Shown one piece after another: positions 21,797 through 59,834 of a stretch of 64,000 nucleotides of DNA (its first letter is position 1; every line of letters begins with the position of its first letter). The stretch comes from Escherichia coli (GTDB lineage: Bacteria; Pseudomonadota; Gammaproteobacteria; Enterobacterales; Enterobacteriaceae). The stretch lies in NCBI RefSeq assembly GCF_041886205.1, contig NZ_CP169029.1, one strand, 5' to 3'. The notes beneath the pieces are model-generated. The model searched no databases and was not told the origin of the DNA. It saw only the letters and a list, made by a program, of their open reading frames with translations. The position numbers were made by a program, and so were the translations under genes.

Positions 21797-21981
21797 AGTT
21801 GCTCATTCACCGACTTATGTCAGCCCCTTCGGGACGTGCTACATAAAATTCGAATGACGCACAACAAGGTGCCTGCCGTCCAACTTCTGATATCAGCGTA
21901 GCTATATCAACCATCGGGCGAAACGTCGAGTTAGGCACCGCCTTATTCCATAACAAAGCCGGGTAATTCCCGGCTTTGTTG
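21797..21981 (+). ncRNA. glmY: small regulatory RNA GlmY
   Basis: Sequence ...ctcattcaccgacttatgtcagccccttcgggacgtgctacataaaattcgaatgacgc... recognised as GlmY; ends in hairpin aaagccgggtaattcccggcttt plus U-tract; lies between purL and glrK; 5' end approximate. Confidence 0.75.
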
Positions 21982-28884: not shown

Positions 28885-28947
28885 GCGAAACGGTTAATCT
28901 GTTGAAAAAAGGCTTCCTTCGGGAAGCCTTTCTACGTTATCGCGCCA

Positions 28948-30165: not shown

Positions 30166-31031
30166 TTGCGTGATTATTCCGCGAAAACATTGCCAGATTG
30201 TTCAATACACTGCCACAAATCTTTTAATTCAGTATGTCTTGTTAATATTGAGGGCACCATGACTCCAGTAAAAGTGTGGCAAGAGCGCGTTGAGATCCCG
30301 ACCTATGAAACCGGGCCGCAGGATATACATCCCATGTTCCTGGAAAATCGCGTTTATCAGGGATCGTCCGGCGCGGTTTATCCCTACGGCGTGACCGATA
30401 CGCTGAGCGAGCAGAAAACCCTGAAATCCTGGCAGGCGGTGTGGCTGGAAAACGACTACATCAAAGTGATGATCCTGCCGGAACTGGGCGGTCGGGTGCA
30501 TCGCGCGTGGGATAAAGTGAAACAGCGCGATTTTGTTTATCACAATGAAGTCATTAAACCTGCGCTGGTGGGGCTGCTGGGGCCGTGGATTTCCGGTGGG
30601 ATTGAGTTTAACTGGCCGCAACATCATCGCCCGACCACCTTTATGCCCGTTGATTTCACCCTCGAAGCCCATGAAGACGGTGCACAGACGGTGTGGGTAG
30701 GCGAAACGGAGCCGATGCATGGTTTACAGGTGATGACAGGTTTCACCCTGCGCCCTGACCGGGCGGCGCTGGAAATCGCCAGCCGCGTCTATAACGGGAA
30801 CGCCACGCCGCGTCATTTCTTGTGGTGGGCCAACCCGGCAGTGAAAGGGGGGGAAGGGCATCAGAGCGTCTTCCCGCCGGATGTAACGGCGGTTTTTGAT
30901 CACGGCAAACGGGCCGTCTCCGCTTTCCCCATCGCTACCGGCACTTACTACAAAGTGGACTACTCCGCTGGAGTGGACATTTCTCGCTATAAAAATGTGC
31001 CTGTTCCAACCTCATATATGGCCGAAAAATC
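30166..31031 (+). pseudogene. yphG: yphG 5' fragment (large TPR/DUF protein), truncated by IS1
   Basis: Reading frame opens at 30166 (TTG; an ATG with GAGGG RBS lies at about 30259) and is broken at the IS1 junction; the same frame resumes exactly after the IS1 target duplication. Confidence 0.8.
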
Positions 31032-31046
31032 GGTAATGACTCCAAC

Positions 31047-31550
31047 TTATTGATAGTGTTTTATGTTCAGATAATGCCCGATAACTTTGTCATGCAGCTC
31101 CACCGATTTTGAGAACGACAGTGACTTCCTGCCCAGCCTTGCCAGATGCTGCCTCAGATTCAGGTTATGCCGCTCAATGCGCTGCGTATATCGCTTGCTG
31201 ATAACGTGCAGTTCTCCCTTCAGGCGTGATTCATAAAGCGGCCAGCCATCCGTCATCCATACCACGACCTCAAAGGCCGACAGCAGGCCCAGAAGACGCT
31301 CCAGCGTCGCCATAGTGCGTTCACCGAATACGTGCGCAACAACCGTCTTCCGGAGCCTGTCATACGCGTAAAACAGCCAGCGCTGGCGCGATTTAGCCCC
31401 GACATAGCCCCACTGTTCGTCCATTTCCGCGCAGACGATGACGTCACTGCCCGGCTGTATGCGCGAGGTTACCGACTGCGGCCTGAGTTTTTTAAGTGAC
31501 GTAAAATCGTGTTGAGGCCAACGCCCATAATGCGGGCAGTTGCCCGGCAT
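31047..31550 (-). CDS. insB: IS1 InsB (transposase C-terminal ORF; InsAB' made by -1 frameshift)
   Basis: 167-aa [19 protein letters not shown]...KHYQ recognised as IS1 InsB. Confidence 0.9.
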
Positions 31551-31744
31551 CCAACGCCATTCATGGCCATATCAATGATTTTCTGGTGCGTACCGGGTTG
31601 AGAAGCGGTGTAAGTGAACTGCAGTTGCCATGTTTTACGGCAGTGAGAGCAGAGATAGCGCTGATGTCCGGCGGTGCTTTTGCCGTTACGTACCACCCCG
31701 TCAGTAGCTGAACAGGAGGGACAGCTGATAGAAACAGAAGCCAC
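31469..31744 (-). CDS. insA: IS1 InsA (transposition repressor)
   Basis: 91-aa [46 protein letters not shown] (zinc-finger-like), GTG start; A6C slippery site ttaaaaaac at its 3' end. Confidence 0.9.
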
Positions 31745-31799
31745 TGGAGCACCTCAAAAACACCATCATACACTAAATCAGTAAGTTGGCAGCATCACC

Positions 31800-34316
31800 G
31801 AAAAATCGCAGTACGATTTTGTCGGCGCGTGGTGTCACGATGAAGATGGCGGTTTGCTGCACGTTGCCAACCACCATATTGCGCCAGGTAAAAAACAGTG
31901 GAGTTGGGGACACAGTGAATTTGGCCAGGCGTGGGATAAGAGTCTGACCGACAATAACGGCCCGTATATCGAACTGATGACCGGTATTTTTGCCGATAAC
32001 CAGCCCGATTTTACCTGGCTTGATGCTTACGAAGAGAAGCGTTTTGAGCAGTATTTCCTGCCTTATCATTCTTTGGGCATGGTGCAAAATGCCTCCCGCG
32101 ATGCGGTGATAAAACTCCAGCGTAGTGAGCGGGGGATTGAGTGGGGGCTGTATGCCATCTCTCCGTTGAACGGATACCGCCTGGCGATCCGCGAAATCGG
32201 CAAATGCAACGCGTTACTTGATGATGCCGTGGCACTGATGCCTGCGACCGCCATCCAGGGCGTGTTGCACGGTATCAATCCTGAAAGGCTGACCATTGAG
32301 CTCTCCGATGCCGACGGCAATATTGTACTGAGTTATCAGGAACATCAGCCGCAAGAGTTGCCGTTGCCGGACGTCGCCAAAGCGCCACTGGCAGCACAAG
32401 ACATTACCAGTACAGATGAAGCCTGGTTTATCGGTCAGCATCTGGAGCAATATCATCACGCCAGCCGTTCACCGTTCGATTACTACCTGCGCGGCGTGGC
32501 GCTGGATCCGCTGGATTACCGCTGTAACCTGGCGCTAGCGATGCTGGAATATAACCGTGCCGATTTCCCGCAAGCGGTGGCGTATGCCACTCAGGCTCTG
32601 AAACGCGCACATGCGCTGAACAAAAATCCGCAGTGCGGACAGGCGAGTTTGATTCGCGCCAGTGCTTACGAACGTCAGGGACAATATCAACAAGCCGAAG
32701 AGGATTTCTGGCGGGCGGTCTGGAGCGGCAACAGCAAAGCCGGTGGCTATTATGGCCTGGCACGACTGGCTGCGCGTAATGGTAACTTCGACGCGGGTCT
32801 GGATTTTTGCCAACAAAGTCTTCGCGCCTGCCCAACCAATCAGGAAGTGCTTTGCCTGCATAACCTGCTGCTGGTGTTAAGTGGTCGTCAGGACAACGCG
32901 CGTTTGCAGCGCGAGAAACTGCTGCGCGATTATCCGCTGAACGCCACTCTGTGGTGGCTGAACTGGTTCGATGGTCGTAGCGAATCAGCCCTCGCGCAGT
33001 GGCGCGGTCTGTGTCAGGGACGCGACGTTAACGCTCTGATGACCGCCGGGCAACTGATTAACTGGGGAATGCCCACCCTGGCGGCAGAGATGCTGAACGC
33101 ACTGGACTGTCAGCGCACGTTATCGCTTTATCTACAAGCCAGCTTGCTGCCGAAAGCCGAACGCGGCGAACTGGTCGCAAAAGCCATTGATGTCTTCCCG
33201 CAGTTTGTCCGTTTCCCGAATACGCTGGAAGAAGTGGCGGCGCTGGAGAGTATTGAAGAGTGCTGGTTTGCTCGCCATTTACTGGCCTGCTTCTACTACA
33301 ACAAACGTAGCTACAACAAAGCCATTGCCTTATGGCAACGTTGCGTAGAGATGTCGCCGGAGTTTGCCGACGGCTGGCGCGGGTTAGCGATCCATGCGTG
33401 GAATAAGCAACACGATTATGAGCTGGCCGCGCGTTATCTTGATAATGCTTATCAGCTTGCGCCGCAGGATGCACGTCTGCTTTTCGAACGGGATTTGCTT
33501 GATAAGTTAAGTGGAGCCACACCGGAGAAACGACTGGCGCGTCTGGAAAATAATCTGGAAATTGCGCTGAAACGCGACGACATGACCGCAGAACTGCTCA
33601 ATTTGTGGCATCTCACGGGGCAGGCAGACAAAGCGGCGGACATTCTCGCCACGCGTAAATTCCACCCGTGGGAAGGCGGGGAAGGGAAGGTCACCAGTCA
33701 GTTTATCCTCAACCAGTTATTACGCGCCTGGCAGCATCTTGATGCCAGAGAGCCGCAGCAGGCCAGCGAACTGCTTCATGCCGCGCTGTATTATCCGGAG
33801 AATTTAAGCGAAGGCCGTTTACCGGGGCAAACTGATAACGACATCTGGTTCTGGCAGGCGATATGCGCCAACGCGCAGGGCGATGAAACTGAAGCGATGC
33901 GTTGTTTACGTCTGGCGGCGACCGGCGATCGCACCATTAACATCCACAGTTATTACAACGATCAGCCGGTTGATTATCTCTTCTGGCAAGGAATGGCGCT
34001 GCGACTGCTGGGTGAACAGCAAACCGCACAGCAACTGTTTAGTGAAATGAAACAGTGGGCGCAAGAGATGGCGAAAACCAGTATTGAGGCGGATTTCTTT
34101 GCTGTTTCACAACCTGACCTGTTGTCGCTGTATGGCGATTTACAACAGCAGCATAAAGAAAAATGCCTGATGGTGGCGATGCTGGCGTCCGCGGGACTCG
34201 GGGAGGTTGCGCAATATGAATCTGCTCGCGCTGAATTGACGGCGATTAATCCGGCCTGGCCGAAAGCGGCATTATTCACCACCGTGATGCCTTTTATTTT
34301 TAACTACGTTCACTAA
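31800..34316 (+). pseudogene. yphG: yphG 3' fragment (TPR-repeat region), downstream of IS1
   Basis: Frame continues from the target duplication to stop at 34316; removing IS1 plus one repeat copy restores a single 3375-bp ORF (1124 aa). Confidence 0.8.
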
Positions 34317-50456: not shown

Positions 50457-51194
50457 ATGCTGCAAAATATTCGAATTGTGCTGGTGGAGACGTCACACAC
50501 CGGCAATATGGGTTCTGTTGCCCGTGCCATGAAAACAATGGGATTAACCAACCTGTGGCTGGTTAATCCACTGGTGAAACCTGACTCCCAGGCGATTGCC
50601 CTGTCAGCAGGGGCCAGCGATGTGATTGGTAATGCTCACATCGTCGATACGCTCGACGAAGCATTAGCTGGTTGTAGCCTGGTGGTGGGCACCAGTGCAC
50701 GCTCCCGCACGCTGCCGTGGCCGATGCTCGACCCGCGCGAATGTGGTCTGAAAAGCGTCGCTGAAGCGGCAAATACCCCGGTGGCGCTGGTTTTTGGTCG
50801 CGAGCGCGTCGGCTTGACCAATGAAGAGTTGCAGAAATGCCATTATCATGTCGCGATTGCCGCTAACCCTGAATACAGTTCGCTGAATCTGGCGATGGCG
50901 GTTCAGGTTATTGCCTATGAAGTGCGCATGGCCTGGCTTGCAACTCAGGAAAATGGTGAGCAGGTCGAGCATGAAGAGACGCCGTATCCGCTGGTCGATG
51001 ATCTGGAGCGTTTTTATGGTCATCTGGAACAAACGCTGCTGGCAACCGGTTTTATCCGTGAAAACCATCCGGGGCAGGTGATGAATAAATTGCGCCGTCT
51101 GTTTACCCGTGCGCGCCCGGAAAGCCAGGAATTGAATATCCTGCGCGGGATTCTGGCTTCTATTGAGCAGCAGAATAAAGGTAACAAGGCCTGA
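50457..51194 (+). CDS. trmJ: tRNA (cytidine/uridine32-2'-O)-methyltransferase (SpoU family)
   Basis: 245-aa ORF, SPOUT fold [24 protein letters not shown]. Confidence 0.85.
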
Positions 51195-51221
51195 GGGCTA
51201 AGCCAGATAAGTGCACGGACG

Positions 51222-51262
51222 GTCCCCTCGCCCCTTCGGGGAGAGGGTTAGGGTGAGGGGAA
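51222..51262. repeat. GC-rich intergenic repeat (box C-like) between trmJ and iscR
   Basis: tcccctcgccccttcggggagagggttagggtgagggg, an imperfect GC-rich palindrome resembling E. coli box C repeats. Confidence 0.4.
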
Positions 51263-51384
51263 GAGGCCAGCGCTAATGCGAATAATTGCCCTCAACCCGC
51301 CCATGGTCTGGAAGGACAACAGGTACAAACGCCACGATAAAAAAATGGCACTGAAGGTTAAATACCCGACTAAATCAGTCAAGT

Positions 51385-51983: not shown

Positions 51984-52094
51984 TAAAAAGAATTCAGAAT
52001 CAGGCCGGGGCGTATCGCGCTCCGTAAACACGGTCGTACATCCAGCCGGTAGCCTGGTTCCTTGCATTGAGTGATGTACGGAGTTTATAGAGCA

Positions 52095-56889: not shown

Positions 56890-57090
56890 ATGGGACTTAA
56901 GTGGACCGATAGCCGCGAAATTGGCGAAGCACTGTACGATGCGTATCCCGATCTTGATCCGAAAACGGTTCGATTCACCGATATGCATCAGTGGATTTGC
57001 GATCTGGAAGATTTCGACGACGACCCGCAGGCATCCAACGAGAAAATCCTCGAAGCGATTTTGTTAGTCTGGCTGGACGAAGCCGAGTGA
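56890..57090 (+). CDS. iscX: Fe-S assembly protein IscX
   Basis: 66-aa acidic [20 protein letters not shown]. Confidence 0.9.
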
Positions 57091-57148
57091 ATGAACGGGC
57101 TGCCTGGGGGTAGCCCGTTTTGCTGTTAAACGAATAAGGATAACTAAA

Positions 57149-58432
57149 ATGACAGAAGCGATGAAAATTACCCTTTCTACCCAACCTGCCGACGCGCGCT
57201 GGGGAGAAAAAGCGACTTACAGCATTAATAATGATGGCATTAACCTGCATTTGAACGGGGCAGACGATCTGGGGCTGATCCAGCGTGCGGCGCGCAAGAT
57301 TGACGGTCTGGGCATCAAGCATGTTCAGCTAAGCGGTGAAGGCTGGGATGCGGATCGTTGCTGGGCATTCTGGCAAGGTTACAAAGCTCCGAAAGGCACG
57401 CGTAAAGTGGAGTGGCCGGATCTGGACGATGCCCAACGCCAGGAACTGGATAACCGCCTGATGATCATCGACTGGGTGCGTGACACTATCAACGCACCGG
57501 CAGAAGAATTGGGGCCATCGCAACTGGCACAGCGTGCTGTTGATCTGATCAGCAACGTCGCAGGCGATCGTGTGACTTACCGGATCACCAAAGGCGAAGA
57601 TCTGCGTGAGCAAGGTTATATGGGGCTGCACACCGTCGGACGCGGTTCAGAACGTTCTCCGGTATTGCTGGCGCTGGATTACAATCCAACTGGCGATAAA
57701 GAAGCACCGGTGTACGCGTGCCTGGTTGGTAAAGGCATCACTTTTGATTCCGGCGGCTACAGCATCAAACAGACTGCGTTTATGGACTCGATGAAGTCGG
57801 ACATGGGCGGCGCGGCAACGGTTACCGGGGCGCTGGCGTTTGCCATTACGCGCGGACTGAACAAGCGCGTGAAGCTGTTCCTCTGCTGTGCGGATAACCT
57901 GATCAGCGGCAATGCGTTCAAGCTGGGCGATATCATTACCTATCGCAACGGTAAAAAAGTTGAAGTGATGAACACCGATGCGGAAGGGCGTCTGGTGCTG
58001 GCTGATGGCCTGATTGATGCCAGTGCGCAAAAACCGGAACTGATCATTGATGCGGCGACCCTCACCGGGGCGGCGAAAACCGCGCTGGGTAATGATTATC
58101 ACGCGCTGTTCAGTTTTGACGATGCGCTTGCCGCTCGCTTGCTGGCGAGTGCCTCACAAGAGAATGAACCGTTCTGGCGTCTGCCGCTGGCGGAGTTCCA
58201 CCGCAGCCAGCTGCCGTCTAACTTTGCCGAACTGAACAATACCGGAAGCGCGGCGTATCCGGCAGGTGCAAGCACGGCGGCGGGCTTTCTGTCGCACTTT
58301 GTTGAGAACTATCAGCAAGGCTGGCTGCATATCGACTGCTCGGCGACTTACCGTAAAGCGCCGGTTGAACAGTGGTCTGCGGGTGCTACGGGACTTGGTG
58401 TGCGCACGATTGCTAATCTGTTAACGGCGTAA
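57149..58432 (+). CDS. pepB: peptidase B (M17 aminopeptidase)
   Basis: 427-aa ORF with M17 signature NTDAEGRL. Confidence 0.9.
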
Positions 58433-58440
58433 ACTAATAT

Positions 58441-58540
<100 letters not shown>

Positions 58541-58574
58541 TTGTGCCCCGAACGTTGAATGAATTGTGGTTCTT

Positions 58575-59351
58575 ATGTCCGAAACAAAAAATGAACTTGA
58601 AGACCTGCTGGAAAAAGCAGCAACCGAACCGGCGCACCGCCCGGCCTTTTTCCGTACTCTACTGGAATCCACCGTCTGGGTGCCTGGTACGGCGGCGCGG
58701 GGCGAGGCGGTGGTTGAAGATAGCGCGCTTGATTTACAGCACTGGGAAAAAGAAGACGGCACCAGCGTCATTCCTTTTTTTACCTCGTTAGAAGCACTTC
58801 AACAGGCAGTTGAAGACGAACAGGCATTTGTCGTAATGCCCGTTCGCACATTGTTTGAGATGACCCTTGGCGAAACGCTCTTCCTTAATGCCAAACTGCC
58901 AACCGGTAAAGAGTTTATGCCGCGTGAAATCAGTTTGTTGATTGGTGAAGAAGGGAATCCGCTGAGTAGCCAGGAAGTACTGGAAGGCGGTGAATCGCTG
59001 ATATTATCGGAAGTCGCAGAGCCGCCAGCACAAATGATTGATTCACTCACCACCTTATTTAAAACCATTAAGCCAGTGAAGCGTGCTTTTATATGTTCAA
59101 TTAAAGAGAACGAAGAGGCACAGCCTAATTTACTTATTGGCATTGAAGCCGATGGTGATATCGAAGAAATTATTCAGGCGGCGGGAAGTGTAGCGACCGA
59201 TACATTACCTGGCGATGAACCAATCGATATTTGTCAGGTGAAAAAAGGGGAAAAAGGAATTAGCCACTTTATTACCGAACATATTGCGCCATTCTATGAA
59301 CGTCGTTGGGGTGGTTTTTTGCGTGACTTTAAACAGAACCGGATAATCTAA
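58575..59351 (+). CDS. sseB: protein SseB (enhances serine sensitivity)
   Basis: Start refined to MSETKNELEDLLEKA (258 aa). Confidence 0.85.
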   Translation: MSETKNELEDLLEKAATEPAHRPAFFRTLLESTVWVPGTAARGEAVVEDSALDLQHWEKEDGTSVIPFFTSLEALQQAVEDEQAFVVMPVRTLFEMTLGETLFLNAKLPTGKEFMPREISLLIGEEGNPLSSQEVLEGGESLILSEVAEPPAQMIDSLTTLFKTIKPVKRAFICSIKENEEAQPNLLIGIEADGDIEEIIQAAGSVATDTLPGDEPIDICQVKKGEKGISHFITEHIAPFYERRWGGFLRDFKQNRII

Positions 59352-59800
59352 AATATGCCGCCCCAAAGGGCGGCATTCGGGCTTACCTGCTGTTCTGAAG
59401 GTTGTTAACCACCAGTAAATTGTTGCCGGAGAGACTCAGGTTATTATTTACCTCGGTTAACAGCGCACCAGAAACAATAAGTACGATACAAAAGCACCGT
59501 ATCTTCATTGTGCGGTCCATGCGAAGACCGCATCACGACAGCACCACTGGCGATATTGCCGCGATAGCAAGCGCTGTGAAACACCTGCATTTACGGCCAC
59601 GGAACATCCTTTCCTAAAGCCAGCGCCCGTTTGCGAGACGGCGGAAAGGGCCGGTGTCGATAATACGCTAAATAAACAATAATTACTCTCTTTTGCTTGA
59701 CAAAAAGAGAGTTGCTGGCGAATATTGCTCTGCTGTGAAGCACCTGCGTTGCTCATGCAACACAAGTCAACCTGCTGGAAAGGCCGCGAACCAGACCAGC
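59352..59800. ncRNA. ryfA: putative sRNA locus (position consistent with ryfA) in the sseB-sseA convergent spacer
   Basis: 500-bp gap between convergent genes, bounded by hairpin terminators on both sides and containing promoter-like hexamers; I recall ryfA being annotated between sseA and sseB but cannot verify strand or ends from sequence. Confidence 0.35.
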
Positions 59801-59803
59801 AAT

Positions 59804-59834
59804 AAAAAACCGCCAAATTCGGCGGTTTTTTATT
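59804..59834. terminator. bidirectional rho-independent terminator (sseA 3' end / opposing short transcript)
   Basis: aaaaaaccgcc-aaattc-ggcggtttttt, GC stem flanked by A-run and T-run. Confidence 0.6.

Follow-up and report, generated by a model that had tools for sequence, protein, structure and literature searches.

The slippery motif TTAAAAAAC found on the minus strand of the analyzed stretch of Escherichia coli DNA (64,000 nucleotides, referred to here as the window) is most likely the genuine -1 frameshift site of a full-length IS1 inserted in yphG, and this element can in all likelihood transpose autonomously, at the low frequency usual for IS1. We infer both the production of the InsAB' transposase and the mobility of this particular copy from sequence comparisons, whereas the A6C frameshift of IS1 as such is known biology and has been textbook knowledge since 1989.

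Architecture of the IS1 element and its frameshift site

A search of the window with the IS1 terminal repeats, which are imperfect and ~23 bp long, returned exactly two sites (0 expected by chance), which belong to the single IS1 in the window. The features of the element and of the gene that it interrupts are as follows:

31032-31799, minus strand: complete IS1 of 768 bp, a rare mosaic isoform as judged by inverted-repeat search, ungapped comparison with K-12 IS1A-F and collection searches
31777-31799, minus strand: left terminal inverted repeat IRL, GGTGATGCTGCCAACTTACTGAT, identical to that of IS1A
31032-31054, plus strand: right terminal inverted repeat IRR, GGTAATGACTCCAACTTATTGAT (read inward), identical to that of IS1A
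31765-31792, minus strand: promoter-like CTGCCA-16 nt-TATGAT overlapping IRL, at the site described for the weak IS1 promoter
31469-31744, minus strand: insA, GTG start, 91 aa, with zinc ribbon and helix-turn-helix; the protein equals consensus InsA
31047-31571, minus strand: insB' frame, -1 relative to insA, with the DDE_Tnp_IS1 domain; open between IS1 229 and its stop codon at 751-753 and translated only from 31490 downstream, within InsAB'
31047-31744, minus strand: insAB' transframe gene for a 232-aa transposase, 31744-31490 joined to 31490-31047
31487-31493, minus strand: A6C slippery heptamer A_AAA_AAC, programmed -1 frameshift site (IS1 307-313), with TT just before it at 31494-31495
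31024-31031, no strand: left copy of the 8-bp target-site duplication, GAAAAATC
31800-31807, no strand: right copy of the 8-bp target-site duplication, GAAAAATC
30259-31031, plus strand: 5' fragment of yphG (DUF5107 protein), interrupted by IS1
31800-34316, plus strand: 3' fragment of yphG

The terminal 30 nt at each end of the element are those of IS1A. Point mutations in the A6C motif or in the inverted repeats, which an earlier sequence-only reading of this DNA had named as evidence against an intact element, could not be found, and both ends matched IS1A/E exactly. On the IS1 scale, insA (frame 2) extends over 56-331, and insB' lies in frame 1, which is open over 229-753. The exact InsA protein was found on at least 1000 contigs, and it matched PF03811 (E = 1.3e-21) and PF12759 (E = 4.7e-31), the matches being to Zn_ribbon_InsA and HTH_Tnp_IS1. 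The 167-aa open reading frame at 31047-31550 on the minus strand matched DDE_Tnp_IS1 (PF03400) over positions 1-131 of 131 (E = 2.5e-75). A -1 slip at the heptamer gives an InsAB' protein of 232 aa without a stop, which scored 246.7 bits against the NCBIfam model NF033558 (transpos_IS1 equivalog; cut-off 100). No premature stop was present in either open reading frame (InsA, 91 aa; insB' frame, 167 aa; fusion, 232 aa), in agreement with what had been noted before. Judged from its sequence, the element thus unites the size, repeats, insA, insB', A6C motif, fusion, DDE residues and target duplication of IS1 proper.

A single occurrence of TTAAAAAAC was found in the window, at 31487-31495 of the minus strand. 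In IS1 coordinates, this is 305-313, a place that the motif also takes in all six K-12 copies (IS1A-F) and in the IS1R copy of plasmid R100. The heptamer codons TTA-AAA-AAC correspond to L84-K85-N86 of insA, with the correct phase and inside the insA/insB' overlap, which bears out the earlier claim of a slippery motif at the insA/insB junction: the A6C is exact and in phase in the overlap. Alignment to the IS1 reference isoforms, the check suggested for this claim, placed the motif at the reference coordinate and showed that the 181 nt around the site (IS1 263-443) are identical to IS1A/E. With regard to location, the motif does fall within the interval first given (31486-31501), whereas the plus-strand string quoted for it, gagttttttaagtgac, spans 31485-31500 and was therefore one base off.

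It should be noted that the 9-mer by itself is not significant, as 0.91 matches are expected by chance per 64-kb window and at least one match was obtained in 59 of 100 shuffles; its meaning comes from the IS1 context. A chance occurrence without function, which these numbers would allow, can be dismissed on the basis of that context, since a full-length IS1 surrounds the 9-mer, which occupies the reference coordinate, keeps the phase and falls in the overlap, within the 181-nt stretch that equals IS1A/E. The RNA that follows the slippery site, folded over 106 nt from the motif downstream, formed no better structure than shuffled sequences did (z = +0.84) by a method that is blind to pseudoknots. 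The region downstream of the slippery site is identical to that of IS1A/E, and a stimulatory pseudoknot has been mentioned for IS1 frameshifting (PMC12428005). No Rfam family was found at the frameshift site in a gathering scan of the whole window, and an E-value scan of 30900-31950 returned only a chance-level match to RalA (E = 0.98).

The arrangement resembles that of the IS3 family (IS911, IS150 and IS3), in which an upstream regulatory or DNA-binding open reading frame is likewise joined to a downstream catalytic one when the reading frame slips by -1 at an A-rich heptamer, and in which this slip sets a low transposase-to-regulator ratio. However, the IS3 family has a different type of transposase and usually uses A_AAA_AAG together with a defined downstream stimulatory structure, of which no significant counterpart was detected in the window IS1. 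Programmed frameshifting of the IS3 family has been mentioned beside that of IS1 (PMC12428005).

On the basis of these features, transcription would begin from the weak IRL promoter, most ribosomes would read insA to its TAA stop and yield the 91-aa InsA repressor, and a small fraction would slip one base back on A_AAA_AAC and go on in the insB' frame to produce the 232-aa InsAB' DDE transposase, which would act preferentially in cis on both inverted repeats. The weak IS1 promoter has been reported to be situated partly inside IRL (PMC12428005). Previous studies have also described that most ribosomes stop at the end of insA to give the InsA repressor, that less than about 2% of them slip -1 on A6C to give InsAB', that the transposition frequency is set by the InsAB'/InsA ratio and that removal of the frameshift requirement increases transposition about 900-1000-fold (PMC12428005, PMC12903888).

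An alternative route to InsAB' would be slippage during transcription, with RNA polymerase losing one A of the A6 run from the mRNA. Homopolymeric A runs can make bacterial polymerase slip, a property exploited by some IS elements, and sequence data cannot tell the two routes apart. However, six A residues are short for efficient polymerase slippage, and the heptamer shows the exact X_XXY_YYZ phase for tandem tRNA slippage. In addition, two reports (PMC12428005, PMC12903888) attribute InsAB' to -1 ribosomal frameshifting at A6C, with reference to Sekine and Ohtsubo (1989). Slippage of the polymerase is thus a very improbable source of the transposase, and we retain ribosomal frameshifting as the preferred reading.

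As a separate observation, PGAP-annotated IS1 transposases show H-F-K-K-L at the join (codon 84, window ~31490-31495), where the join duplicates a T, whereas slippage on A_AAA_AAC predicts H-L-K-K-L.

Mosaic composition and transposase residues

All of the K-12 copies (IS1A-F) and IS1R of R100 (NC_002134.1, 21225-21992; the classical IS1) could be aligned to the window copy without gaps. Comparison with IS1A/E, the experimentally mobile consensus of K-12, revealed 23 nucleotide differences (97.0% identity), two of which were synonymous changes in insA (positions 109 and 262) and 21 of which fell between 444 and 717. Nucleotides 1-108, 263-443 and 718-768 were identical, so that the last 51 nt and both inverted repeats are unchanged; the copies are also alike in their length of 768 bp, in IRL, IRR and InsA, in the position and phase of A6C and in the 232-aa InsAB'. 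Thus, both ends, the promoter region, the InsA protein and the 181 nt around the site match those of an experimentally active element. IS1R has the same architecture and motif and differs from the window copy at 27 nucleotides.

On the basis of these alignments, the window copy is a rare mosaic isoform, with an IS1A-like left half and a variant block at transposase residues 149-178. The right half (nt 444-717) looks recombinant with a divergent IS1 lineage, which partly resembles IS1F but is not the same. Rarity was evident from collection searches: the closest copy was 99.2% identical among 5,426 complete E. coli genomes and 98.9% identical in PLSDB (72,556 plasmids).

Compared with IS1A, InsAB' of the window copy carries eight substitutions, all in the InsB' part: S130R, G149E, M152L, S153G, P157A, D159E, I162V and K178E. 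The seven-substitution block at residues 149-178 sits between the first and second catalytic aspartates, and we know of no functional test of it. When 25 natural IS1 transposases (82-97% identity) were aligned, each of the eight positions changed in the window copy proved polymorphic. The largest cluster, with 14,178 members, has a representative that carries five of the eight window residues (E149, L152, A157, E159 and V162), and G153 and E178 could be observed in other members of the alignment. D109, D166 and H193 were invariant, E191 was present in 24 of the 25 sequences and L217 was nearly invariant. The window copy has all of D109, D166 and E191, which would form the catalytic triad as judged from the motif pattern EMDE, MTDG and RIERH.

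These residues are relevant to the claim, made in the sequence-only reading, that a copy with an intact motif should still produce InsAB' and remain transposition-competent. In K-12 BW25113, only IS1A and IS1E transpose appreciably (PMC12428005). IS1B, IS1C and IS1D differ from the consensus by 9 nt and have intact A6C, frames and inverted repeats. Even so, they hardly move, at ~1 event per 10^10 cells, and their transposition is about 1000-fold lower or undetectable (PMC12428005); they could be moved in trans only with the transposase overproduced (PMC12903888). Because these isoforms keep A6C and are nevertheless nearly immobile, an intact motif is insufficient proof of competence (PMC12428005). 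The claim therefore does not stand on the motif alone; it is supported by the integrity of the element, the transposase residues, the identical copies and the empty site.

Like the window copy, IS1B/C and IS1D show intact A6C, open frames, intact inverted repeats and R130. Our alignment revealed that IS1B/C carry L217Q and IS1D carries H193Y, each in addition to L81F and S130R, whereas the window copy has the wild-type residues L81, H193 and L217. IS1R of R100 has L81F and S130R only; it shares R130 with the window copy, from which it differs by F81 and by the lack of the 149-178 block. Chen et al. in 1998 reportedly implicated His-193 and Leu-217 and tied them to ~30-fold lower transposition; the residue numbers 193 and 217 agree with the alignment of the K-12 isoforms. 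That study is cited in both PMC12428005 and PMC3031569.

In view of the K-12 isoforms, the window copy might be intact by sequence but crippled in the same way, with its identical copies mobilized in trans by another isoform. The frameshift site would then work, and either the 149-178 block or the antisense context would reduce activity to near zero. Such a possibility is consistent with the near-immobility of isoforms with intact A6C that are only 9 nt from the consensus (PMC12428005) and with the trans-mobilization of such copies when transposase is abundant (PMC12903888), and also with the 23 nt and 8 aa that separate the window copy from the consensus and with the rarity of the isoform. 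However, the H193Y and L217Q changes of the immobile K-12 isoforms are absent here, the accompanying L81F and S130R also occur in IS1R of R100, and the residues of the block are common in nature, including the largest IS1 cluster. A crippled copy therefore seems unlikely, and an autonomous element remains our preferred reading.

Insertion in yphG and its chromosomal surroundings

The element is flanked by the two 8-bp copies of GAAAAATC, and IS1 target duplications of 8-10 bp have been reported (PMC3031569). The usual length for IS1 is 9 bp. The same 8 bp could be identified as a single copy at the uninterrupted yphG site in strains ZH48 (L003), 6EVA and LHM10-1. In the latter two strains, which are 99.95% identical to the window flanks over ~16 kb, yphG is intact (3,282 nt, 1093 aa). 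The presence of a whole yphG in such closely related chromosomes suggests that the knockout is recent. The yphG::IS1 junction was reproduced exactly over 1,343 bp in one SRA-derived contig (Logan SRR28800585), and none was found in an exact scan of the GTDB species-representative genomes.

As a result of the insertion, yphG is probably inactivated. A polar effect may also be inferred for the genes 3' of yphG, which putatively encode a sugar ABC transporter (yphF, E, D, C and B). The IS1 genes run antisense to yphG, so that neither read-through transcription nor activation of the element from this gene is expected. [quoted passage not shown]

Two other possibilities for the insertion were considered and rejected. 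First, full-length matches in other genomes (for example, ZH48) might have been taken for IS1 at the same yphG site, but they represent IS1 in the intergenic region between yphH and yphG. Second, a Shigella origin was raised by the rarity of the isoform in E. coli; however, the flanks are 99.95% identical to E. coli 6EVA and LHM10-1. The insertion between yphH and yphG in ZH48 (L003 955-1652) and other E. coli strains is an unrelated one of the IS1A/IS1B type, which suggests that this neighborhood has been struck by IS1 more than once.

Gene for gene, the window follows the ~2.650-2.713 Mb segment of K-12 collinearly, in reversed orientation and with ~98.7-98.9% identity. The gene order is srmB, rpoE-rseABC, rnc, purL, glmY, glyA, yphH-yphA, hca, isc, ryfA and yfhM, and the IS1 is the only large insertion relative to K-12. 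Rfam matches in the window, counted above the gathering score, were all in the positions expected from K-12 synteny:

5290-6121: AsrC (antisense of rseC)
8905-9119: rncO leader
12532-12596: OhsC
21797-21944: GlmY
51984-52093: iscRS element
59350-59654: RyfA

Several smaller differences from K-12 were also observed. Three intergenic stretches, 28894-28909 (glyA-yphH), 51191-51315 (iscR-trmJ) and 57086-57136 (pepB-iscX), were ~120-150 bp shorter than in K-12 or unalignable, which probably reflects the presence or absence of REP/BIME-type repeats. Over 57136-59834 (sseB-ryfA-timR), identity to K-12 was only 95.9%, with 7 gap openings, against ~98.8% elsewhere. The overlap of two BLAST segments at 59638-59834 suggests a local repeat or rearrangement around the ryfA/timP toxin-sRNA locus.

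Identical copies and the mobility of the element

The exact transposase, in the PGAP junction convention, is P0168 ('MULTISPECIES: IS1 family transposase [Escherichia]'), which was found in six places in four assemblies. In one assembly, GCA_051217495.1, we identified three full copies that are identical to the window copy at all nucleotides (768/768) and that lie at different loci (L022, L024 and L025). Like the window copy, all three have an A at position 109 that is absent from the other near-identical copies. These copies differ from the window copy in their insertion sites and target duplications: the L022 copy has its own 8-bp duplication AGGGGCCG, the L024 copy has its own 9-bp duplication CAAATTTCG, and at L025 the full copy is part of a composite between 9-bp repeats GAAGCCCTG, in contrast with GAAAAATC in the window. 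A further copy (L023), with 5 mismatches to the window copy, also shows a 9-bp target duplication, and copies with one mismatch were observed at three further sites, in metagenome (gut) and SRA contigs.

The structure at L025 deserves a separate description. In 2218-3713 of this locus (JBPKHD010000001.1), an IS1 truncated at IS1 728, and thus without IRR, is directly adjoined by the full identical IS1. This composite could be the product of an IS1-mediated adjacent deletion, a derivative of a tandem dimer or an assembly artefact.

The distribution of identical copies also bears on whether the window copy could be crippled and its relatives moved in trans by another isoform. At least four full copies show zero divergence and separate target duplications, which, together with the strong cis preference of the IS1 transposase (PMC12903888), favors autonomy. 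Thus, considering the zero divergence, the independent duplications, the empty site and the cis preference, recent autonomous transposition is the most economical reading. The mosaic isoform might even represent a lineage that is now expanding and that differs from consensus IS1 in activity or regulation, for example through a higher intrinsic transposition, but we consider this doubtful.

With respect to annotation, our results indicate that the locus is best described as a single IS1 whose transposase gene includes a programmed frameshift, and that yphG is best labeled a pseudogene, disrupted by a recent insertion. More generally, identical copies with independent target duplications and empty sites in close relatives provide better evidence for the activity of an IS1 copy than does its slippery motif.
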